Assembly (NCBI GenBank): GCA_041690395.1
Contig: JAWLHJ010000003.1
Span: 160,001-224,000 of the forward strand
Reading direction: 5' to 3'
DNA length: 64,000 nt
From: Longimicrobiales bacterium
Lineage (GTDB): Bacteria > Gemmatimonadota > Gemmatimonadetes > Longimicrobiales > Gaopeijiaceae
Notes under the pieces: model-generated
The model's input: the letters and a program-made list of their open reading frames with translations, nothing else
Database searches by the model: none
What the model was told of the DNA's origin: nothing
Part shown: piece by piece, positions 43,822 to 55,302 of the stretch
Layout of the letters: each line of letters starts with the position of its first letter
How positions within the stretch are numbered: the first letter of the stretch is position 1
Position numbers and translations under genes: made by a program

Positions 43822-46272
43822 CTAGAAACCCGGGCCCATTCGGAAGTGGAACTGCCAGCCCGGCGTGGTCTTGTCGAATCCGTAGGCGTAGTCGAGCCCG
43901 ATGGGCCCGAACGGCGTCACGAGTTGCAATCCGAATCCGGCGCCCCGATAGAGGCGTGTCGGGTCGATGTCGCCCGGGTTCCGCCACACGTTACCCGCGT
44001 CGAAGAACGCCCCGAGACCGAGCTGCCCGCTCAGTCGAATGGCGTACTCCGCCGTGAGGCTGAAGAACGCGTTCCCCAGCCGATCGATGTCGGAGATGCC
44101 GCGGGCGTTGTCGGCGAAGTATCCGACCGGGGTGATGGACGTTTCGTCATAGCCGCGCAGGTTCTGGCCGAACTGCACGCCACCCATCCAGAATCGGTCG
44201 AACGGGAAGGCCTCGGCGTTGCCGAACACGGTCCCACCCCGCAGGGTGAGGCCGAGCGCGAGGCGGATGCCGCTGGTCGGGTTCCCCGGATCGCCACCGA
44301 GGCGGCCCGCCGGGACCCACCAGGTTCCGTCCGCCAGCACTCGGGTGAAGTCACCGTCACCGCCCAGGAGGCCGCCGTTGACTTCGACGTTCACGTTCTG
44401 TCGGGAGCCCGTGGTGGGGAACAACGGGTGGTCCAGCGTCTGGCGGGTCACGCCCAGGGTCAGCTGACTCTGGAGCCCGGGCGGGCGGCCGAAGAGGGAC
44501 TGGTCGTCCACGTCGTTGAAGAGCTCGTACGTCGTCCTCGACAACCCGTAGCCGACGAACACCCGGGACAGTCTCGAGTTGGGCCAGGGCATACCGAAGC
44601 GAGTGTTCGCGCCGATCCGCTTACGGCGCCCGCTCGAGAACGAGAAGAACCGGTCACGCGAGTTGAACAGCGACAGCGAGCCCGAGATCATGCTCTGGAA
44701 GATGGCCGGGTCCGAATAGGTCATCTCGAAGCTGTTCAGATACCGGCCGAAGTCCCACCGCAGCGTCCCCGACTTGGCCTGTCCGAAGAGGTTCGGCTGC
44801 TCGTACCCGATGAAGCCGGAGAGCCCGACCCCACCCCCGACGGACGTGCCGAAGTTCACCGACCCGGTCTGCTTCTCCTCGACGACGAACGTGATATCCA
44901 CGTCGCCGTTGTCGAGCGGCTGGATGTCGGGGAACGGCAACGGCGCCTCGAAGAAGCCCAGCGACGAGATGTTCTGGTAGCTCCGGATCAGGCGGTCCTG
45001 GCTGTAGACGTCGCCAGGCAGGATGAAGAGCTGATTCCGGATGACCCACTCGTACGTGTACTCGTTCCCGGCGATCGCCACGCGGTTCACGATGGCCGGC
45101 TCGCCCTCGATGATCTGCCAGCTGGCGTCGACCGTGGGCGGCTCGTCTCCCTCACTCGGATTCCGCTGGAGCACCGGATTCACCTGGATGTACAGGTACC
45201 CTTCGTTCCTGTACGCCTCCATGACCCGCTCCATCGCGGCGTTGAAGGCCTCCGCGTCGAAAACCTCCCCCTCGATGTTCGAGGTACGGCTCCCGCCGAT
45301 ACCCAGGCTCCTGAGAAGCCCGCCTTCCTCGGTGCGGAAATAGGCGAGGATGTCGTCGGTGGGGAAGCGCGAGTTGCCTTCGACCGTGAACTCGCCCAAG
45401 CGGTACTGAGGGCCTTCGTCGACTTCGACCTCGACGCGAGCCTTCCCGGTCTCCGCATCGACGATGAGGGTGTCACGCACGACCGTGAAGTCGAGGAAGC
45501 CCCTGGATCGATAGAGCTGAGGCAGCCGTTCCTCGAGGTCCGCCTCGAACTGGAACTCGTCGAAGCGTCCCGACCGGAACCACCAGAAACCCTCGGGCCT
45601 GGTCGCCATGGCTCCGCGCAGGTCGGCGGCCGACACGTTCTGATTCCGGACGAACTCCACATCGGCCACCGTCACCCGGTGCCCTTCGGTGACCTCGAGA
45701 ACGACGTTCACCTCGCCCGGAGAGCCGGGAGCCGGATCCACGCGCTCCTGGATCTGGGCGAAGGGGATCCCACGCTCCGCCAGTTCCGTCCGGATGAAGC
45801 GCTTGGCGTCGAGGATGCTCTGCTGATTGAGCGGTGCCCCGGGCCGCAGACCGGTCGTATCCCGCACCTGGCTCGCCGAGATCGACTCGAGCCCGTCCAT
45901 GAGGACGGACCGGATCAACTCCTGCTCGTCCACCTCGATCACCAGCGTCACGGGCGCGGACGGATCGGCCCCGCGCGCACGGACCACGACATCCCGGAAC
46001 TGTCCCGTCCCGACCAGCGACTTGATACCTCGCTGGATGTCCCGGTAGGTGATGGACTGCCCGGGCTGGACACCGAACAAGGCGACGATCGCGCCGGGTT
46101 GGACGCGGAGGTTCCCCTCGACCACGACCGAGTCGACGACGGTCTCCTCGGGCTGGGGCTGCTGTTGGGCTTCCGTCAGTCGGGGAGCGAGCGCACACAC
46201 GACGAGGAAGGCCGCCGACAGCGCGGCGACCTTCCTCGACCGCCTTACCGCGCGGTTGATCTGGAATCTCAC
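43822..46272 (-). CDS. bamA: Outer membrane protein assembly factor BamA
   Basis: POTRA repeats (VEGN, YRSRGF, YRNEGY), EKQTGS, NLFGQ, LRGY motif, TPFGPIGLDYAYG, terminal F. Confidence 0.95.
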   Translation of the reverse strand: MRFQINRAVRRSRKVAALSAAFLVVCALAPRLTEAQQQPQPEETVVDSVVVEGNLRVQPGAIVALFGVQPGQSITYRDIQRGIKSLVGTGQFRDVVVRARGADPSAPVTLVIEVDEQELIRSVLMDGLESISASQVRDTTGLRPGAPLNQQSILDAKRFIRTELAERGIPFAQIQERVDPAPGSPGEVNVVLEVTEGHRVTVADVEFVRNQNVSAADLRGAMATRPEGFWWFRSGRFDEFQFEADLEERLPQLYRSRGFLDFTVVRDTLIVDAETGKARVEVEVDEGPQYRLGEFTVEGNSRFPTDDILAYFRTEEGGLLRSLGIGGSRTSNIEGEVFDAEAFNAAMERVMEAYRNEGYLYIQVNPVLQRNPSEGDEPPTVDASWQIIEGEPAIVNRVAIAGNEYTYEWVIRNQLFILPGDVYSQDRLIRSYQNISSLGFFEAPLPFPDIQPLDNGDVDITFVVEEKQTGSVNFGTSVGGGVGLSGFIGYEQPNLFGQAKSGTLRWDFGRYLNSFEMTYSDPAIFQSMISGSLSLFNSRDRFFSFSSGRRKRIGANTRFGMPWPNSRLSRVFVGYGLSRTTYELFNDVDDQSLFGRPPGLQSQLTLGVTRQTLDHPLFPTTGSRQNVNVEVNGGLLGGDGDFTRVLADGTWWVPAGRLGGDPGNPTSGIRLALGLTLRGGTVFGNAEAFPFDRFWMGGVQFGQNLRGYDETSITPVGYFADNARGISDIDRLGNAFFSLTAEYAIRLSGQLGLGAFFDAGNVWRNPGDIDPTRLYRGAGFGLQLVTPFGPIGLDYAYGFDKTTPGWQFHFRMGPGF

Positions 46273-48752
46273 GTCTTGGTCGCCGATTTCGCCTGAAGAT
46301 TGAGTCGCTTGCCGTCCGGGTCGACGCTCACTTCGATCTCGTCGCCCTCGCTGAACTCCGCCTGGAGGATCTTCTCCGACAGCGGGTCTTCGAGGTAACG
46401 CTGGATCGCGCGCTTGAGCGGGCGCGCCCCGAACTTCTCGTTGTAACCTTCCTCGACGAGGAAGGTGATGGCCGCGTCGGTGAGTCGGAGCGTGATGCCC
46501 TCGTCCTCGAGCCGCTTCCGCACGTCCTCCATGAGGATGTGGACGATCTGGCCGATCTCTTCCTTCGTGAGCGGATGGAAGACGATCGTGTCGTCCACGC
46601 GGTTCAGGAACTCGGGGTTGAACGCCCTCTCGATCTCCTGACCCACCCTGTCCTTCATCAGGTCGTAGCTCGACTGCGCGTCCGCCGCCTGGAAGCCGAC
46701 CCCACCGCCCTTCGTGATGTCCCGGGCACCGAGGTTGGACGTCATGATCAGGACGGTGTTCTTGAAGTCGATCACACGACCGTAGTTGTCCGTGAGGTGC
46801 CCTTCGTCGAGCACCTGCAGGAGGATATTGAACACGTCCGGATGTGCCTTCTCGATCTCGTCGAGAAGCACGACGGAGTAAGGGCGACGCCGCACGGCCT
46901 TCGTGAGCGTGCCGGAATCCTCGTACCCGACGTAGCCGGGAGGCGCGCCGATGAGGCGGGACACGGAGAACTTCTCCATGTACTCGCTCATGTCCACGCG
47001 GATGAGGGCCTCGCGGTCCGCGAACAGGAACTCGGCCAGCGCTCGCGCCAGCTCGGTCTTACCCACGCCCGTCGGTCCGGAGAAGATGAACGAGCCGATG
47101 GGCCGGCGCGGGTCCTTGAGTCCCGCGCGGCTGCGCCGGATGGCCCGGCTGATCGCCTCGATCGCGTCGTGCTGCCCCACGATCCTCTTGTGGAGCTCCT
47201 CCTCCATGTTGACGAGCCTATCGGACTCGGTCTGCCGGATACGGGTCACCGGAATGCCCGTCCAGCGGCTCACGATGAAGCCGATCTCCTCGTTTGAGAT
47301 CTCGGGGCGGAACTTCTTCCGCTCCTCCTCCCACGCGGTCTGCCGCTCGCGGATGGCCTGCCCCAACTCCCGCTCCTCGTCGCGCAGCTCGGCCGCGCGC
47401 TCGAAGTCCTGGTCGCCGATGGCGGCTTCCTTCCGCTTCGCGATCTCGGACAGCTCTTCCTTGAGCTCCTCGACCTCCGGCGGCGGAACCTGACTCGCGA
47501 TGCGCGCCCGGGCTCCGGCCTCGTCGATCACGTCGATGGCCTTGTCCGGCAGGAACCGGTCGGTGATGTAGCGGTCGGAGAGCTTGGCGGCCTGCTCGAG
47601 GGCCTCGTCCGGGATGATGACCCGGTGATGGTCCTCGTAGTGCGTGCGAAGCCCCTTCAGGATCTCGACGGTCTCGTCCACGGCGGGCGGATCAACGATC
47701 ACGGGCTGGAAGCGACGCTCGAGCGCGCCGTCCTTCTCGATGTACTTCCGGTACTCGTTGAGCGTGGACGCACCGATGCACTGGAGCTCTCCACGGGCGA
47801 GCGCCGGCTTGAGCATGTTCGACGCGTCGATGGCGCCCTCGGCCGCCCCCGCTCCGACGAGCGTGTGCAGCTCGTCGATGAACAGGATGACCGTCTGGCT
47901 CTGCTGGATCTCGTTCATGACCGCCTTCAGGCGCTCCTCGAACTGACCCCGGTACTTCGTGCCCGCGATGACCGCGGCCATGTCGAGCGCCAGGACGCGG
48001 TGGTCCTTCAACGCGTCGGTGATCTCGCCCTGAGCGATGATCTGGGCCAACCCCTCCACGATGGCGGTCTTGCCGACACCCGGCTCTCCGATGAGCACCG
48101 GATTGTTCTTCTTCCGGCGGCACAGGATCTCGACCACGCGCTCGATCTCGGACGCGCGCCCGATGGTGGGATCGAGCTTATCCTGACGCGCCAGCTCCGT
48201 GAGGTCGCGGCAGAAATGATCGAGCGCGGGCGTCTTGGACTTCTTGTCGCCGCTCTTGCTCGACCCCTGCGACTGTGAGCCACCACCGATCCCGGCCGGC
48301 TCGGACGGACTGACGTCGGAGCCGAGGACCTTGAGCGTCTCGGCGCGGGCCTCCTCGAGGGTCACCCCAAGGGAGTTCAGGACCTGGGCCGCGATCCCCT
48401 TCTCCTCCCGCAGCAGCCCGAGCAGCAGATGCTCGGTGCCGACGTAGGAGTGGTTGAAGTCACGGGCTTCGGCCATGGCGAACTCGAGCACCTTCTTCGC
48501 TCGGCTCGTGTAGGGCAACTCACCCAGGGCGATCGTGGCCTTGCCTTTGCGCACGGACTCCTCGACCCGCTCGTGGATCTGATCCAGATCCACGCTCAGA
48601 TTCGTGAGTACCGCCGCGGCGACGCCTTCGCCCTCACGGATGAGTCCAAGGAGGATGTGCTCCGTACCGACGTAGTCGTGCTGCAGGCGAATGGCCTCCT
48701 CGCGCGCCATCGCCAGCACTTTTCGCACTCGGTCGGTGAAGTTGTAGTTCAT
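46269..48752 (-). CDS. clpC: ATP-dependent Clp protease ATP-binding subunit ClpC
   Basis: Two Clp-N repeats, GEPGVGKT and GPTGVGKT Walker A motifs, UVR middle domain, VGF ClpP-binding loop, GARPLKR. Confidence 0.96.
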
Positions 48753-48755
48753 CCG

Positions 48756-49883
48756 TCAGGACCGGTCAGGGGACGCGTCTTCGTCGGACGAGGTGTCGTC
48801 CGCCGAAACGTATCCTTCGGTAGCGAGAACGCGCCGCACGTAGGCCGCTCGATGCGCGTCGCTCTCCGTTTGGGGAAGATCACGACCGGCGGCCTGCTCG
48901 AGGTGCGCCGGCTGTGTGAAGATCATCATCTTGTTGAGCGTGTATACACGGAGGCCTGGGAGTAGTTTCAGGCTCACGCCGAGTCGTACGCCCGAGAGGA
49001 GATTCATGAGCTCCTCGAACGAGAGCGACCGGGCGTATCGCAGGAGGCCGTAGGCGCGCCAGATCTTGTCCTCGGTCACCCCGAGCGCATCCCGCATGAG
49101 CACCTGGCGGGCGTGCATCTCGTACTGGATGACCTGGCGGACCACCTTGTCGAGATGGTCGACGAGGTCCTCCTCGGTCTTCCCGAGCGTGGTCTGGTTC
49201 GAGACCTGGAAGAAGTTTCCGACCACTTCGGAGCCTTCGCCGTAGAGGCCGCGGAATGTCAGCCCGACCTGTCCGAGGCCCTGGAGGACCTTCCCGATCT
49301 CCTTGGTGAGCACGAGTCCCGGCAGGTGCATGAACACCGACGCCCTGAGTCCCGTTCCCACGTTCGTGGGGCAGCTCGTCAGGAAGCCGAACTCGGTGTG
49401 GTACGCGAACGGAAGCTCCCGCCCGAGCTCCTCGTCCAGGCGGTCGACGATGCGCCACGCCTCTTCGATGCGGAGCCCCGACACGAGGCTCTGCACCCGC
49501 AGGTGGTCCTCCTCGTTCACCATCACGCTGAGCGGATCGGCACCCGAGAGGTGGACGGCGGCGCCGCGCGACGGTTCTCCGTCCTCCTCGCCCAGCAGAT
49601 CCTTCGAGACGAGCCTCCGCTCGAGTAGGATGCGCCGGGTCCGGAGGTTGGCCTCGGGCATCTCCATGAGCGTGCCTCCGCGCAGCGACTCGCACCGCGC
49701 CGCAGAGGCACGGAACTGCTCGAGCACCGCTTCGCGATCATTCACCCGGGCGCGTGGCCCAAACGCGTGACCCTGCAGGTTACGCGCCAGTCGTACTCTC
49801 GTGGACAGCACGATGTCGGCGTGATCGCCACTCGCTTCGAGCCAGCTCAGGCCGTAATCGGGAATGGAGGCGAACTCGTCCAT
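48756..49883 (-). CDS. mcsB: Protein-arginine kinase McsB
   Basis: LSTRVRLARN, MVNEEDHLR, GFLTSCPTNVGTGLRAS, RGLYGEGSE, QVSNQTTLG. Confidence 0.95.
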   Translation of the reverse strand: MDEFASIPDYGLSWLEASGDHADIVLSTRVRLARNLQGHAFGPRARVNDREAVLEQFRASAARCESLRGGTLMEMPEANLRTRRILLERRLVSKDLLGEEDGEPSRGAAVHLSGADPLSVMVNEEDHLRVQSLVSGLRIEEAWRIVDRLDEELGRELPFAYHTEFGFLTSCPTNVGTGLRASVFMHLPGLVLTKEIGKVLQGLGQVGLTFRGLYGEGSEVVGNFFQVSNQTTLGKTEEDLVDHLDKVVRQVIQYEMHARQVLMRDALGVTEDKIWRAYGLLRYARSLSFEELMNLLSGVRLGVSLKLLPGLRVYTLNKMMIFTQPAHLEQAAGRDLPQTESDAHRAAYVRRVLATEGYVSADDTSSDEDASPDRS

Positions 49884-50048
49884 CTAGTGTCCCGCGTCAG
49901 AAGTTCGTTGAGCACCGAGAGTGCGGCGGCGCCACTGCGGCGAGGCGCGACGACGAGGCATAGCACCGCTACGTCGAGGAGGAGCAACGCTGCCGCAGTG
50001 GATGCAGCGGCGCTCGACTGCCGACGAACTTCTGACTCGGGACACTAG
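49884..50048. mobile_element. Non-autonomous palindromic MITE-like element
   Basis: 25-bp terminal inverted repeats (24/25) CTAGTGTCCCG(C/A)GTCAGAAGTTCGT, nested CCACTGCGGC/GCCGCAGTGG stem, CTAG at both ends; removal restores mcsA TAG directly followed by mcsB ATG. Confidence 0.8.
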
Positions 50049-50548
50049 GCGGGCTCCAGGGAGCGGATCTGGTCACGCAGCTCGGCCGCGCGCTCGAAGT
50101 CCTCGGACTCGATGGCCCGGTGCAGTCGCCGCCGCAACCCCTCGAGCCGCTTCTCCATCTCGGAGGCGGTCGGGTCCGGCGGGAGGTACACCTTGCCCAC
50201 GTGCTGCGTCCCACCGTGCACCCGACGGAGCAGGCGACGCAGGGAACTCGAGAACGTCTCGTAGCAGTGTGGGCAGCCGAGCCGTCCGGTGTCCCGGAAC
50301 TGCTTGAAGGTCAGGCCGCAGTACGAACAGGTGTCGCCGCCCGACTCGACCTCCTCGACCTGATCGTGCCCCATCTGCGCGAGGAAGTCGGTGAGCGGAA
50401 CGCTCGCCGGCTCCGGGGCGCTCTCGAGCCCCTTCTCCGCGGCGCACCGCTCGCAGAGGTGATGTGTCGACATCTCGTTGTTCACGATCTGGGTGAGGTG
50501 AACGACGGCGTCCGTCGAGCCGCAGTTGTCACACACCATGTCGGACAT
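50045..50548 (-). CDS. mcsA: McsA (CxxC zinc motifs plus UVR domain)
   Basis: [40 protein letters not shown]. Confidence 0.94.
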   Translation of the reverse strand: MSDMVCDNCGSTDAVVHLTQIVNNEMSTHHLCERCAAEKGLESAPEPASVPLTDFLAQMGHDQVEEVESGGDTCSYCGLTFKQFRDTGRLGCPHCYETFSSSLRRLLRRVHGGTQHVGKVYLPPDPTASEMEKRLEGLRRRLHRAIESEDFERAAELRDQIRSLEPA

Positions 50549-50618
50549 CGAGCCTCCAGAGCCTCGAGCACGCGTCGCCGCCGGACGATTCCGGAGGTCG
50601 CGATCTCGTTCCCATCGG

Positions 50619-51335
50619 CTACACCCCAGCGTGCGGATGGAGCCGCCCGCCGTCGAGCTGGAGCACGCGGTCCGCTCTGCCGGCGAGATCGGCGTTATGG
50701 GTCACCACGACGAGCGAAAGGTTCCGTCGCTCGCGCAAGGCGAAAAGAAGGTCGTGCAGACGCTCGCTCGTGCGCTTGTCCAGATTGCCGGAGGGCTCGT
50801 CGGCGAGCAGGACCAGGGGCTCGTTGACCAGCGCACGCGCCACGGCTACCCGTTGCTGCTCGCCGCCCGAGAGCTGACGCGGCCGGTGCGTTTCGCGCTC
50901 ACCCAACCCGACCTCGTGGAGCAGCTCGCGCGCCCGGTCGCGAGCGGTGGCGTGCGCGCCGCCGCCCACGAGCGCGGGCATCATCACGTTCTCGAGCGCG
51001 GTGAACTCCCGGAGCAGGTGGTGGAACTGGAAGACGAAGCCGACGTGCCTGTTACGCACCGCGGCCAGCGCCTCGTCGGAGAGCTTGGAGACGTCCTGTC
51101 CGCCCAGGAGGACCCGGCCCGCCGTCGGCCGGTCGAGAGCGCCCAGAATGTGGAGGAAGGTCGACTTCCCCGCCCCGCTGGCGCCGGTGATCGCGATCGC
51201 CTCTCCCGATCCGACCGTGAGGTCGAGGCCGTCGAGGATCTCGAGTGGCGTCCCGTCGCCGCCGACGAAGACCTTCGTCACGTCGCTCGCTTCGAGCGGC
51301 GGCAGCGCGGACCCCGTCATGCGGACGTCACTCAT
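50619..51335 (-). CDS. lolD: Lipoprotein-releasing ABC ATPase LolD
   Basis: GASGAGKST, GFVFQFHHLLREFTALENVMMP, LSGGEQQRVA, LADEPSGNLD. Confidence 0.92.
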   Translation of the reverse strand: MSDVRMTGSALPPLEASDVTKVFVGGDGTPLEILDGLDLTVGSGEAIAITGASGAGKSTFLHILGALDRPTAGRVLLGGQDVSKLSDEALAAVRNRHVGFVFQFHHLLREFTALENVMMPALVGGGAHATARDRARELLHEVGLGERETHRPRQLSGGEQQRVAVARALVNEPLVLLADEPSGNLDKRTSERLHDLLFALRERRNLSLVVVTHNADLAGRADRVLQLDGGRLHPHAGV

Positions 51336-52587
51336 GACGGATCGCCTCGACGGGCTCCAGCCGCGAAGCCTGCAGCGCCGGATAGATGGTCGCGAGGAAG
51401 GCGACCAGGATGCTCGCCCCCACGATGAGGACCACGTCGGTGGCCTGCAGGGACACCGGGAGATGGTCGATGAAGTACACGTCGGGGGGAATCTTGATGA
51501 TCTCGTAGCGGCCGAGCGCCCAGGCCGACACGACCCCGAGCACGGTTCCGAGGGTCGTTCCTACGATGCCGATCCACGCGCCCTGCATCATGAACACCCG
51601 GAGGATGCCCGAGCGGGTCATTCCCATCGCCTTCAGGATCCCGATCTCCCGGGTCCGGTCGGCCACGACCATGACCAACGTGCTGACGATGTTGAACGCC
51701 GCCACGAGCACCACCAGGAAGAGGATCAGCCCCATGGCGAGCTTCTCGAGGCGCAGCGCGCTGAACAGGGCGCGGTTCGTGGTCATCCACGACTCGACGT
51801 GATAAGGATAACCCAGCTCCTCCGAGAGATCCGCCGCCACTTCGCCCGCCCGCTCGGGATCGCGCGTGCGGACGCCGATCCCACCCGCGCTCCCCTCGGG
51901 CATGCCGAGGAGCTCGGCCGCGGCCTCGAAGGTGGTGTAGATGTTCCGGGTATCGTAATCCCACATCCCGGTAGTGAATGTCCCGGTCACCTCGAACTCG
52001 CGGATCGTCGGCGTCAGCCCCCCGAAGACGTCCTGCCGCAGATTCTCCAGGGCGACGATCACGAGCCGGTCGCCCTCGAACACCTGCATCTGGTCGGCGA
52101 GCCGACCGCCCATCAGGATCGGGGGTAGGCCGGACTCGGTGGTCGAGAGGTTCAGGGAGCCCTCCACGATGCGCCGCTCCATCTCGGTCGGAGGCGCCAC
52201 GCGCGTGGTGTCCATCGAGACGCCGTAGAGGAGGGCCGGCTGGGAGTAGGAGCCGTCCTCCGCACGGTGGACCACCGACACCTGGGACAGCGCGAACGGA
52301 GCGGCGCCGATCACGTCCGGGTGATCCGCCACCGACTCGAGCACGGTCGACCAGTCGTCGAGCCGGAGGGTCGTCCCCCGCTGGAGGACGATCGCGTGGG
52401 GACTCGACTCCAGAATCTTGTTGCGCAGGTCCTCCTGCATGCCGGTCATGACGGCAATGACGACCACGAGCGCCCACACGCCGACCGTGACGCCCCCCAG
52501 CGCGATCCAGGTGATCAGCGAGAGCAGCCCCCGGCCCCGGCCCGCGCGCAGATAGCGCCGCGCGATGTACCAGTGCAGGCCCGTCAT
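51328..52587 (-). CDS. Lipoprotein-releasing permease LolC/E
   Basis: IARRYLR, GVTVGV.AL.VV.AVM.G, VAAFNIVSTLVMVV..RTREIGILKAMG, YFIDHLP, ATIYPA. Confidence 0.93.
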   Translation of the reverse strand: MTGLHWYIARRYLRAGRGRGLLSLITWIALGGVTVGVWALVVVIAVMTGMQEDLRNKILESSPHAIVLQRGTTLRLDDWSTVLESVADHPDVIGAAPFALSQVSVVHRAEDGSYSQPALLYGVSMDTTRVAPPTEMERRIVEGSLNLSTTESGLPPILMGGRLADQMQVFEGDRLVIVALENLRQDVFGGLTPTIREFEVTGTFTTGMWDYDTRNIYTTFEAAAELLGMPEGSAGGIGVRTRDPERAGEVAADLSEELGYPYHVESWMTTNRALFSALRLEKLAMGLILFLVVLVAAFNIVSTLVMVVADRTREIGILKAMGMTRSGILRVFMMQGAWIGIVGTTLGTVLGVVSAWALGRYEIIKIPPDVYFIDHLPVSLQATDVVLIVGASILVAFLATIYPALQASRLEPVEAIRHE

Positions 52588-52615
52588 GTCCGCCGCCCCT
52601 TCCCACCGCCGATCC

Positions 52616-54142
52616 TCAATCTTCGTTCCTGAGCGTCGGAAACAGGATGACGTCCCGAATCGACGCCTGGTCGGTCAGCATCATGACGAAGCGGTCCACG
52701 CCCATACCGACTCCGCCGGTCGGGGGCATCCCGTACTCGAGCGCGCGGATGAAGTCCTCGTCGACCTGCTGCGCCTCCTCGTCCCCGGCCGCCCGGAGCG
52801 CTGTCTGCGCTTCGAAGCGGGCGCGCTGGTCGATCGGGTCGTTGAGCTCGGAGAAGGCGTTGAAGATCTCGGCGCCGCCGATGTAGAGCTCGAAGCGCTC
52901 GGTGAGGCGCGGGTCGTCCCTGTGCACCTTGGCCAGCGGGCTGAGCTCGCGCGGATGATCCGTCACGAACGTGGGCTGGATGAGGCCCGGCTCCACGAGC
53001 TCGCCGAACAGCTTGTCGATCAGCTTGCCCCGCCCCGCCCCGTCGAGATCCGGAATCTTGAGCTCCTTGGCACGGGCTCGCAGATCTTCCTCGCTGAGGT
53101 CGTGGACGTTCGTCCCCAGGGCCTCGGACAGGCCGCCGATGAGGGGAAGTCGCCGAAACGGCGGTTTGAAATCGATCTCGTGCTCACCGAAGCGGACCGA
53201 GCGGCGGCCGAACACCGTGTCGAGCACGTGGAGCACCATGCGCTCCACTAGATCCATCTGGTCGTGGTAGTCGGTGAATGCCTGATACCACTCGAGCATG
53301 GTGAACTCGGGGTTGTGCACCCTCGAGAGCCCCTCGTTCCGGAAGTCCTTGCTGATCTCGTACACCCGGTCCAGCCCGCCCACGATCAGCCGCTTCAGAT
53401 AGAGCTCGTCGGCGATCCGGAGGTACATCTTCTGGTCGAGCGCATGGTGATGCGTGACGAACGGCTTGGCCGAGGCGCCACCGTAGAGCGGCTGCAGGAC
53501 GGGCGTCTCGACCTCGAGGAATCCCTCCCCGTCGAGGAAGCTCCGAAGCGCCGAGACGATGCGCGCTCGGACGCGGAACTGCTCCCGCACCTCCGGATGG
53601 ACGGCCAGGTCGGCGTATCGCTGCCGATACCGGGACTCCTGGTCCGCGAAGCCGGAGTGCGTGATGCGCTCGCCGGTCTCGGGATCGGTTTCGACCTTCC
53701 CGAACGGGAGGGGCCGGAGGGACTTGGTCAGGAGCGTCCAGCTGTCGGCGCGCACCGTGACCTCACCGGTCCTGGTGCGGAAGGTGCGCCCCTCGATGCC
53801 GACCCAGTCGCCGAGGTCCAGGAAGTCGAGCTGCTCGAACCGCTCGTCGCCGAGCACGTCCTTCCGCAGGTAGACCTGGATGCGGCCGCCGGCGTCCTCG
53901 ACGTGTGCGAACGCGCTCTTCCCGTGTCCACGCCAGCTCACGATCCGGCCCGCGACGCGAACGGATTGGCCGTCGCCGGATTCGTCGAGCTCACCACCCT
54001 TCTCCGCGGCCTCGAAAGCCTCGGCGGCCTGAGTGGACGTATGGGTGGCGTCGAAGGCGTACGCGAACGGCTCGATGCCCGCGGCTCGCAGCGCTTCGAG
54101 CTTCTCGCGCCGGACGCGCAGCACCTGGTTCAGATCTTCCAT
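52616..54142 (-). CDS. lysS: Lysine--tRNA ligase (class II)
   Basis: RYRQRYADL, EVETPVL, YLRIADELYLKRL, FRNEG...HNPEFT, GMPPTGGVGMGVDR. Confidence 0.97.
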   Translation of the reverse strand: MEDLNQVLRVRREKLEALRAAGIEPFAYAFDATHTSTQAAEAFEAAEKGGELDESGDGQSVRVAGRIVSWRGHGKSAFAHVEDAGGRIQVYLRKDVLGDERFEQLDFLDLGDWVGIEGRTFRTRTGEVTVRADSWTLLTKSLRPLPFGKVETDPETGERITHSGFADQESRYRQRYADLAVHPEVREQFRVRARIVSALRSFLDGEGFLEVETPVLQPLYGGASAKPFVTHHHALDQKMYLRIADELYLKRLIVGGLDRVYEISKDFRNEGLSRVHNPEFTMLEWYQAFTDYHDQMDLVERMVLHVLDTVFGRRSVRFGEHEIDFKPPFRRLPLIGGLSEALGTNVHDLSEEDLRARAKELKIPDLDGAGRGKLIDKLFGELVEPGLIQPTFVTDHPRELSPLAKVHRDDPRLTERFELYIGGAEIFNAFSELNDPIDQRARFEAQTALRAAGDEEAQQVDEDFIRALEYGMPPTGGVGMGVDRFVMMLTDQASIRDVILFPTLRNED

Positions 54143-54191
54143 GGACTCTGTCTTAGGGAGGACGAGGTGGCGCGAAGATCGCGCGCTCGAA

Positions 54192-55302
54192 TCAGGCCGC
54201 GGAGGCCGAGCCGATCATCTTGAGATACGCCTCGATGAACGGGTCCAGCTCTCCGTCCATGACGGAGTGGACGTCGCTGTCCTTCAGCTCGGTGCGGTGG
54301 TCGTTGACCATGGTGTACGGTTGGAAGACGTACGAGCGGATCTGGTTGCCCCACCCGATCTCGGTCTTCGTCGACTCGCGCTCGGCGCGCTCCCGCTCCT
54401 TCTCTTCGAGCGCACGCTGGTAGAGCGCCGCCTTCAGCATCTTCATGGCGGTCGCGCGGTTCTTGTGCTGTGAGCGCTCCTGCTGGCAGGACACCACAAT
54501 GCCCGTCGGCTCGTGCGTGATGCGCACGGCCGAATCGGTCTTGTTGATGTGCTGCCCACCGGCGCCCGAGGCCCGGTACGTGTCGACACGGAGATCACCC
54601 TCGTCGATCTCGATCTCGATGTCGTCGTCGACCGACGGATACACGAACACGCTGGCGAACGACGTATGCCGCCGGGCCTGAGCGTCGAACGGGGAGATGC
54701 GGACGAGGCGGTGCACGCCTCCCTCGGCCTTCAGGTAGCCATAGGCGCTGTCGCCGCGAATCTCGAGCGTGGCACTCTTGATACCCGCCTCCTCGGCCGG
54801 CTGGAGGTCCAGCACCTCGACCTCGTAGCCCTGTCGCTCCGCCCAGCGGGTGTACATCCGCAGGAGCATCTCGGCCCAGTCCTGCGACTCGAGCCCGCCC
54901 GCACCGGGGTGGACCGTGACGATCGCGTCGCGATGGTCGTCCTCGCCCTGGAGCATCGTCCGGACTTCGAGCGACTCCAGGCCCCGATCGACGGCGGCGA
55001 GACCCCGCTCGAACTCACCCTGGAGCTCCTCGTCGTTCTCCTCGGCCAACAACTCGGCGAGCGCGTCGAGCTCCTTCACCTTGGCGGAGAGGTCGTTCCA
55101 GGGATCGACCCAGCCCTTGATCTTGTTCGACTCGGCGATGGTGTCCCGGGCGGACTCGGGATTGTCCCAGAATCCCGGCTGCGCCATCTGTTCCTCGAGC
55201 GTGGTCAGGCGTCCTTCGCGTGAATCCAGGTCAAAGATACCCCCTGAGCTCCTGGACCTTCCGGCGTGCGGAAACCAGGCGCTGCATCTGCTCTTTGTTC
55301 AT
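54192..55302 (-). CDS. prfB: Peptide chain release factor 2, programmed +1 frameshift (join 55302-55234 and 55232-54192)
   Basis: 23-codon ORF ending AGG GGG TAT CTT TGA C; downstream frame has SPF and GGQ motifs. Confidence 0.97.
55230..55245 (-). other. prfB +1 frameshift cassette
   Basis: Internal SD AGGGGG, 3 nt spacer, slippery CTT TGA C. Confidence 0.95.

Follow-up and report, generated by a model that had tools for sequence, protein, structure and literature searches.

The 165-nt palindrome that separates an mcsA-like gene from an mcsB-like gene is probably a 159-bp IS630-type MITE inserted in the mcsA stop codon, likely mobilised in trans and carried as a recent, tolerated passenger, with a hairpin through which, by prediction, translation of mcsB stays coupled to termination on mcsA. 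It lies in a 64,000-nt stretch of DNA from a Longimicrobiales bacterium (the window), whose genome (G000; 4.33 Mb in 7 contigs, 98% complete) carries this copy at C3:209884. As an insertion it is nothing out of the ordinary; what sets it apart is a conserved body with exchangeable ends.

The palindrome is real. Its arms (49884-49908 and 50024-50048) are complementary at 24 of 25 positions, CTAG included, and the plus strand folds into a single hairpin of -108 kcal/mol (z -10.4), a value that none of 200 shuffled sequences equalled. The coordinates, the 165-bp length, the CTAG at either end, the 24/25 repeats and the one long hairpin described in an initial annotation of this DNA were all confirmed. 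The host genes run on the minus strand, with the right CTAG containing the mcsA TAG and the left CTAG abutting the mcsB ATG, and the gene coordinates bear out the claim that the element lies exactly between the stop of the former and the start of the latter. Purine-rich internal loops, also noted in the initial annotation, exist on the plus strand, but the mcs mRNA has their pyrimidine-rich complement, and its strand of the element folds at -96.8 kcal/mol. The sole Rfam match of the palindrome, MIR918, was judged to be due to chance (31 bits vs. 268). The features of the locus are collected in Table 1.

Table 1. Features of the mcsA-mcsB junction in window coordinates, followed by elements of two further families in G000 (contig:position).
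Feature	Position	Strand	Remarks
Whole palindrome with both CTAG flanks	49884..50048	.	165 nt
MITE proper, without transposase	49887..50045	.	159 bp; limits set by empty sites and by copies with flanking TA
TA target duplication, mcsB side	49885..49886	.	
TA target duplication within mcsA TAG stop	50046..50047	.	
Left terminal inverted repeat, IS630-type	49887..49908	+	
Right terminal inverted repeat, IS630-type	50024..50045	-	
Covarying hairpin body with purine-rich internal loops	49919..50016	+	model positions 36-133
Tightest shared core within hairpin body	about 49939-49993		
Weak SD-like GGGA from terminal repeat	49890..49893	-	6 nt before mcsB ATG; -4.0 kcal/mol
Candidate 53-codon relay frame	49884..50045	-	GTG overlaps mcsA TAG by 1 nt; TAG abuts mcsB ATG
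GGAG in mcsA tail (SD of the initial annotation)	50054..50057	-	-5.6 kcal/mol in reconstructed empty allele
mcsA-like gene	50548-50045	-	167 aa; NF053706, E 1e-40, under curated cut-off
mcsB-like protein-arginine kinase gene	48756..49883	-	375 aa; NF002194, 383 bits vs. cut-off 385; PF00217
clpC-like AAA+ ATPase gene	46269..48752	-	downstream, 3 nt past mcsB stop
Second-family elements, G000	C1:41320, C1:894386, C2:82174, C2:128083, C2:268657, C5:214736, C6:135642, C6:255187		
Third family, yet other ends, G000	C1:15648, C6:223682		

The mcsA, mcsB and clpC genes sit in a one-strand array (window positions 43822-55187), in which these three and lolD were identified by search; the neighbours we take, from their translations, to be prfB, lysS, lolE and a bamA-like gene. 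A release-factor-like frame at 54192-55187 seems to start late, which would fit a prfB gene read through a programmed frameshift. CtsR was not found in the G000 genome, and positions 49700-50800 hold no promoter-like or terminator-like site. The heat-shock context given to the kinase in the initial annotation is unsupported, with CtsR not found and the genes lying within a lysS-lolE-lolD-mcsA-mcsB-clpC-bamA-like array.

A genome search bore out the expectation of further copies. Three full copies are present in G000, at C3:209884, C3:478416 (97.5%) and C1:555419 (92%), together with two partial element ends, and members of the family occur in many genera. The base outside the TA varies among copies, which are flanked by GTAG, CTAC, CTAT or CTAA. 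In the case of three of nine relatives' copies compared, the orthologous G000 site is empty and has a single TA (L204, L223, L201); one of the remaining sites has a diverged junction, and five are without a spanning match in G000. The TA-flanked copies and the single-TA empty sites together define the element as the 159 bp at 49887-50045, with a TA duplication in CTAG. CTAG as the duplicated target is ruled out, since the outer base varies and empty sites keep a single TA; the CTAG boundaries drawn in the initial annotation therefore stand as flanks, but not as the limits of the element. At positions unfixed by the search pattern, C precedes the TA at 117 of 127 ends, as it does at 67 of 74 partner ends. 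The target is TA within CTAG. The title of a 1991 paper by Tenzen and Ohtsubo reportedly names TA in CTAG.

The CTAG that holds the second G000 copy (C3:478416) is occupied in another genome, G002, by a different element, of the third family, which starts in it (L241); this CTAG is one target used independently by two elements. Longer variants of the element (L211, L214, L225, L227, L228; G000 C6:160075) share a post-core extension whose last part, a GGAGG-ATG motif, lies just inside the terminal repeat. The possibility that a transposase or RAYT gene follows the core in the longer variants was rejected, as the extensions end in the terminal repeat and the variants are longer MITEs.

The ends of the element are those of IS630. 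The right repeat with its CTAG has 0-3 mismatches in 25 to the nearer IS630 end in metagenome and genome loci, one IS630 end having been selected by the search pattern and the other being independent. The exact 25-nt end is present in 51 genome loci from several phyla, and a looser end pattern yielded at least 122 metagenome loci. Among 173 listed pattern loci, 34 match an IS630 transposase, and the repeat was found at both gene ends in 12 of these (11 distinct) and at one end in 17; the transposases of L051 and L130 score above the NF033545 cut-off. A protein search, which does not depend on the pattern, revealed IS630 in 38 of 251 genomes of the order. An end pair of the same type as the element ends was found in 22 of 25 loci from this search, one of which, from the same family (L338), has ends with 3 and 4 mismatches of 22 to the element. 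Both plasmid matches of the element lie on IS630 genes. The element thus matches both ends of full-length IS630 elements (the 11 distinct loci and L338), and of the initial proposal of a non-autonomous, IS630- or IS5-like element targeting TA or CTAG, the IS630 type and the TA in CTAG held, while duplication of CTAG did not.

IS630 elements insert into and duplicate TA, as described in excerpts of PMC2170065. Searches of G000 with tblastn, NF033545 and PF13358 turned up no IS630 transposase, and all matches in 7 genomes of the genus fall below the cut-off. With no IS630 found in G000, the element copies are likely immobile now. The mcs copy was likely mobilised in trans, by a transposase that a visiting IS630 would have supplied, and its insertion would have doubled the TA in the stop codon of mcsA.

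Other arrangements of IS630 ends were also observed. At L260 (G015:C1:1022500-1026500), a family member abuts the right end of a full-length IS630, and this right end matches the terminal repeat of another subfamily. A gene for a 471-aa DDE transposase (DUF772) interrupts a mini-element bearing these ends at L053:2501-4315. Many unrelated palindromic interiors, 61-427 bp long, lie between one and the same IS630 end pair (L021-L198), and some of them we take to resemble REP-like repeats, as if the ends had been repeatedly fitted around existing hairpins.

The body between the ends was aligned in 38 of 49 extracted members, after exclusion of near-duplicates, two mis-delimited copies and one expanded copy. 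Without the terminal repeats, 27 of 35 pairs have changes on both sides, and 94% of cells pair. The covariation score, for a structure derived from the same alignment of related sequences, is 0.42, compared to 0.06-0.10 in slid controls, and none of 500 shuffles scored as high. The covariance-model check suggested in the initial annotation thus reveals a strongly covarying hairpin body. The conserved unpaired purine-rich loops are present on one strand only. The body gave no blastn match in 46 IS630 loci (E 0.01), and the idea of an IS630 deletion derivative was rejected; judging from these sequences, the body is not derived from IS630.

The same body is joined to numerous distinct IS630-type end pairs, and several of these pairs correspond to the ends of different IS630 elements; in G000 the body is also found inside longer families with other ends. 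A second family in this genome consists of eight elements of 309-394 bp with different ends (most in L233-L239), and in each of the seven aligned elements this core is present in two copies of opposite orientation. The core occurs in Acidobacteria, Actinobacteria and 5 of 60 other genomes of the phylum, and in Streptomyces plasmids it lies between different terminal repeats, several of them CTAG-flanked (L323-L326). A tally of 70 of 151 takes in matches to flanks alone and should not be read as a number of elements. The literature searched yielded no account of the shared core; the supplementary MITE catalogue of PMC11602168, a source seen in part, may contain the family. Compensatory changes at 27 of 35 pairs, in a body that is absent from IS630 and carried by many ends, would imply that the spread of the MITE involves a single-stranded step or some binding partner.

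A more far-reaching reading, possible but in our estimate unlikely, makes the body a portable, strand-specific folded module, maintained by selection on its structure in parasitic mini-elements across phyla as these exchange their transposase ends. Both arms would apparently come from one IS end. Among delimited copies, which were selected at a threshold of 15, the arms are near-perfect inverses (17-20 of 20), whereas the left and right ends of IS630 agree at 13-19 of 22. At the mcs locus, such a module would be a ribosome-opened gate tying McsB to McsA termination, in a lineage without RNase III, the loss of which would allow long hairpins in mRNA to be tolerated.

The initial annotation also held that the element lands in stop codons, and this was found for 19 of 32 scorable family copies. 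In G000, CTAG is depleted (929 sites vs. about 3100 expected from trinucleotides); 170 of the sites are at called stops, 335 inside genes and 424 elsewhere, all stop counts resting on a crude custom gene caller. The scorable copies lie at or between gene ends, and their proportion with the TA in a stop codon exceeds that of CTAG sites outside coding interiors (170 of 594; p 3e-4, a value overstated by the relatedness of the copies). Six copies had been dropped from this tally on account of short flanks, and 11 (duplicates, mis-delimited copies and other groups) were excluded beforehand. The rarity of CTAG and the purging of within-gene insertions would make stop codons a common surviving target. 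An ATG directly past the element end was seen at 13 of 321 ends against a background of 30 of 1590; without this locus and one near-duplicate, the count is 11 of 319, which is not significant (p 0.09). The orientation that places the purine strand in the mRNA is favoured 10:2 (p 0.04, from few and related copies), and the mcs copy belongs to the minority orientation.

The distribution of the mcs insertion is narrow. Among 19 loci with both mcsA and mcsB, the insert is present in G000 and in the sister genome G002 only, and the other 17 gaps measure -4 to 43 nt. The estimated junction in 136 family genomes has a median of 13 nt and is 30 nt or shorter in 105; it exceeds 120 nt in three, namely G000, G002 and G139. 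The G139 junction, from another genus, holds an unrelated TA-flanked element of about 260 bp (L303, G139:C3:631700-633000). An element-free mcsA-mcsB junction of the GTGA type is present on contigs of sequencing runs X1, X2, X3 and X5 (three studies), and a second element-free form occurs in X5 and X6. The X1 and X2 contigs are clearly closer to G000 than G002 itself is (26 vs. 81 differences per 861 nt; 5 vs. 20 per 194 nt); those of X3 and X5 are less clearly so. Contigs of the RNA run X4 fall on the region, but no listed contig spans the junction, and contig data are blind to expression level and strand; run X20 covered 160 nt only.

Removal of the element with one CTAG had been calculated to give GGAG CCC GCC TAG ATG as the empty junction. 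The arithmetic is correct, but this allele was not observed in relatives' junctions: mcsA ends in TGA in 15 of 17 element-free relatives and in TAG in 2, with short gaps or overlaps, and it ends in TGA on the element-free contigs as well. The exact TAG-ATG allele that would have preceded the insertion was not found among the relatives' junctions and element-free contigs examined, so that empty sites are documented for relatives' copies, with a single TA, but not for the mcs copy. The GGAG in the mcsA tail is unconserved; some relatives keep it and others have CGAG or CGAA.

The insert differs between G000 and G002 at 2 of 161 positions, the lowest value of 39 spacers, where about 25 differences would be expected from a background divergence of 15.4% in spacers (24.5% at third positions), and the two mcs copies share three private variants. 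This could mark an old, domesticated insertion, in which selection keeps the hairpin as a strict gate and McsB is made only with its activator McsA. That McsA and McsB form a complex (a passage of PMC11046695), that the junction is short in most relatives and that an unrelated MITE occupies the same junction in G139 would all fit. However, copies at different, unrelated sites in three genomes are nearly as alike, differing at 3-5 nt of 159, so that low divergence is a property of the family as a whole. Closer relatives are without the element, a junction of more than 120 nt is found in only the three family genomes named, and the gating predicted for the G139 element is small (an opening cost of 19.1 kcal/mol falling to 13-16). 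We regard domestication as rather unlikely. A young insertion passed between species is likely the simpler reading, and it would account for the near-identical allele in the sister genome without selection.

The consequences of the passenger insertion for mcsB translation were estimated using a folding model. Opening of positions -15 to +12 around the mcsB AUG is predicted to cost 33.3 kcal/mol in the filled allele, compared to 13.8 in the reconstructed empty one and to a median of 13 and a maximum of 29.4 kcal/mol at 300 random gene starts. The initiation region was thus rightly described as buried in a stem, and occlusion of the mcsB start is predicted. When a ribosome was placed at the mcsA stop and the 9-18 nt beyond it were forced to be unpaired, the predicted opening cost fell to 10.7-14.1 kcal/mol. 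In the case of the second G000 copy, which also lies between a stop and a start, the corresponding values are 30.3 falling to 10-18.

These values are consistent with a simple mechanism. The 5' arm begins inside the mcsA stop, and a terminating ribosome would therefore cover this arm and free the 3' arm; the freed arm would in turn expose the weak GGGA and the mcsB AUG. The energy of the GGGA (-4.0 kcal/mol) compares with a genome median of -4.2. RNA unfolding as a route of translational coupling is described in excerpts of PMC4538824 and PMC12548453, the latter of which also reports that stable structure directly past a stop reduces reinitiation. Under the model, coupling of mcsB to mcsA likely survives the insertion. 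A net damping of translation, as initially proposed, is doubtful: naked RNA is predicted to be occluded, but the terminating mcsA ribosome is predicted to lift the extra occlusion. The locus illustrates how insertion of a TA-targeting MITE in a tight operon junction need not break translational coupling, and it lends itself to a clean reporter test of whether coupling across 161 nt works by RNA unfolding.

The 53-codon GTG...TAG frame would be a second possible route to mcsB. Were it the main one, ribosomes would be handed across the element in the manner suggested for mycobacterial interspersed repetitive units (MIRUs), which would also explain why such insertions are tolerated. The relay frame is open in G000 and G002, the modal length in the family is 159 nt, or 53 codons (26 of 46 members), and reinitiation requires overlaps or very short gaps according to a passage of PMC10666635. 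A relay frame kept family-wide was nevertheless rejected, since it is intact in only 17 of 46 members in the plus orientation and 18 in the minus orientation, and common end variants give a stop at relay codon 2 or 3. GC-rich DNA often leaves frames of such length open, and the GTG itself lies inside the stem. The relay is judged an improbable explanation for mcsB translation.

Least probable is the view that the stem works as a thermal switch, a target of RNase III or a net brake on a heat-shock kinase. In its favour, the occlusion predicted for naked RNA is above all 300 sampled starts and RNase III cuts Correia/NEMIS MITE stems in Neisseria (in the portion of PMC10969869 on these repeats). 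Against it, pairing of the terminal stem is predicted to hold (P of at least 0.99) at temperatures up to 75 C, searches of G000 with TIGR02191, PF00636, PF14622, tblastn and a signature motif gave no RNase III, and CtsR and a promoter-like or terminator-like site near the junction were likewise not found. At 65 C, the predicted opening cost is still 19 kcal/mol. Among 151 family genomes, a single one, a bin of 720 contigs, has an RNase III match above the cut-off. None of the 42 genomes examined from the class has the enzyme, as against 18 of 19 genomes that represent the phylum's other classes; a statement on RNase III loss in this class was not found in the literature searched, which for PMC3071783 comprised part of the text. 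The RNase III and melting readings are largely refuted, and neither the thermosensor nor the RNase III site suggested in the initial annotation was borne out.

The element can be compared to several known systems, here as they are portrayed in portions of the sources cited. In Geobacter uraniireducens, the Chunjie MITE is likewise a recently active MITE within an intact operon; it measures 178-235 bp, as opposed to 159 bp here, and no IS630 or TA link is stated for it in the portion concerned (PMC10969869). Rickettsia palindromic elements (RPEs) and the Caulobacter CIR are also palindromes of 100-150 bp, with several families per lineage and, in RPEs, open frames (PMC2229807, PMC10969869). RPEs often insert in frame inside genes (PMC2229807, PMC10969869), whereas the element described here adds a net 161 nt and its copies lie at gene ends; membership of the RPE class by in-frame coding insertion was rejected on these grounds. 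The kinship to RPE-type repeats suggested in the initial annotation is a possible one; two of the three open frames were compared with NCBIfam, which gave no palindromic-element model. Correia/NEMIS and ERIC repeats are TA-ended hairpin MITEs that are co-transcribed with their neighbours, as here, but they undergo processing by RNase III or RNase E (PMC2229807, PMC10969869), and RNase III was not found in the present lineage. MIRUs resemble the element in being small mobile junction repeats whose internal frame could keep downstream translation (PMC12548453). They differ in inserting at start codons with a -4 overlap (PMC12548453) rather than in the TA of CTAG, and in that the relay frame is not kept family-wide here.

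The closest likenesses are to IS630 and its derivatives. IS630/ISY100 elements share the terminal repeats, the TA duplication and the CTAG context (PMC2170065, in part), but the element described here is without a transposase. RUP of Streptococcus pneumoniae, related to IS630-Spn1, and MITEEc1 are, like it, short intergenic stem-loops with a TA duplication and IS630-resembling ends (excerpts of PMC2229807 and PMC11602168). RUP has stops in all six frames (PMC2229807, in the same excerpts), whereas the element here has open frames. Compared to both RUP and MITEEc1, it is GC-rich, is 159 bp long, and has a conserved body with compensatory changes that is carried by many end pairs.
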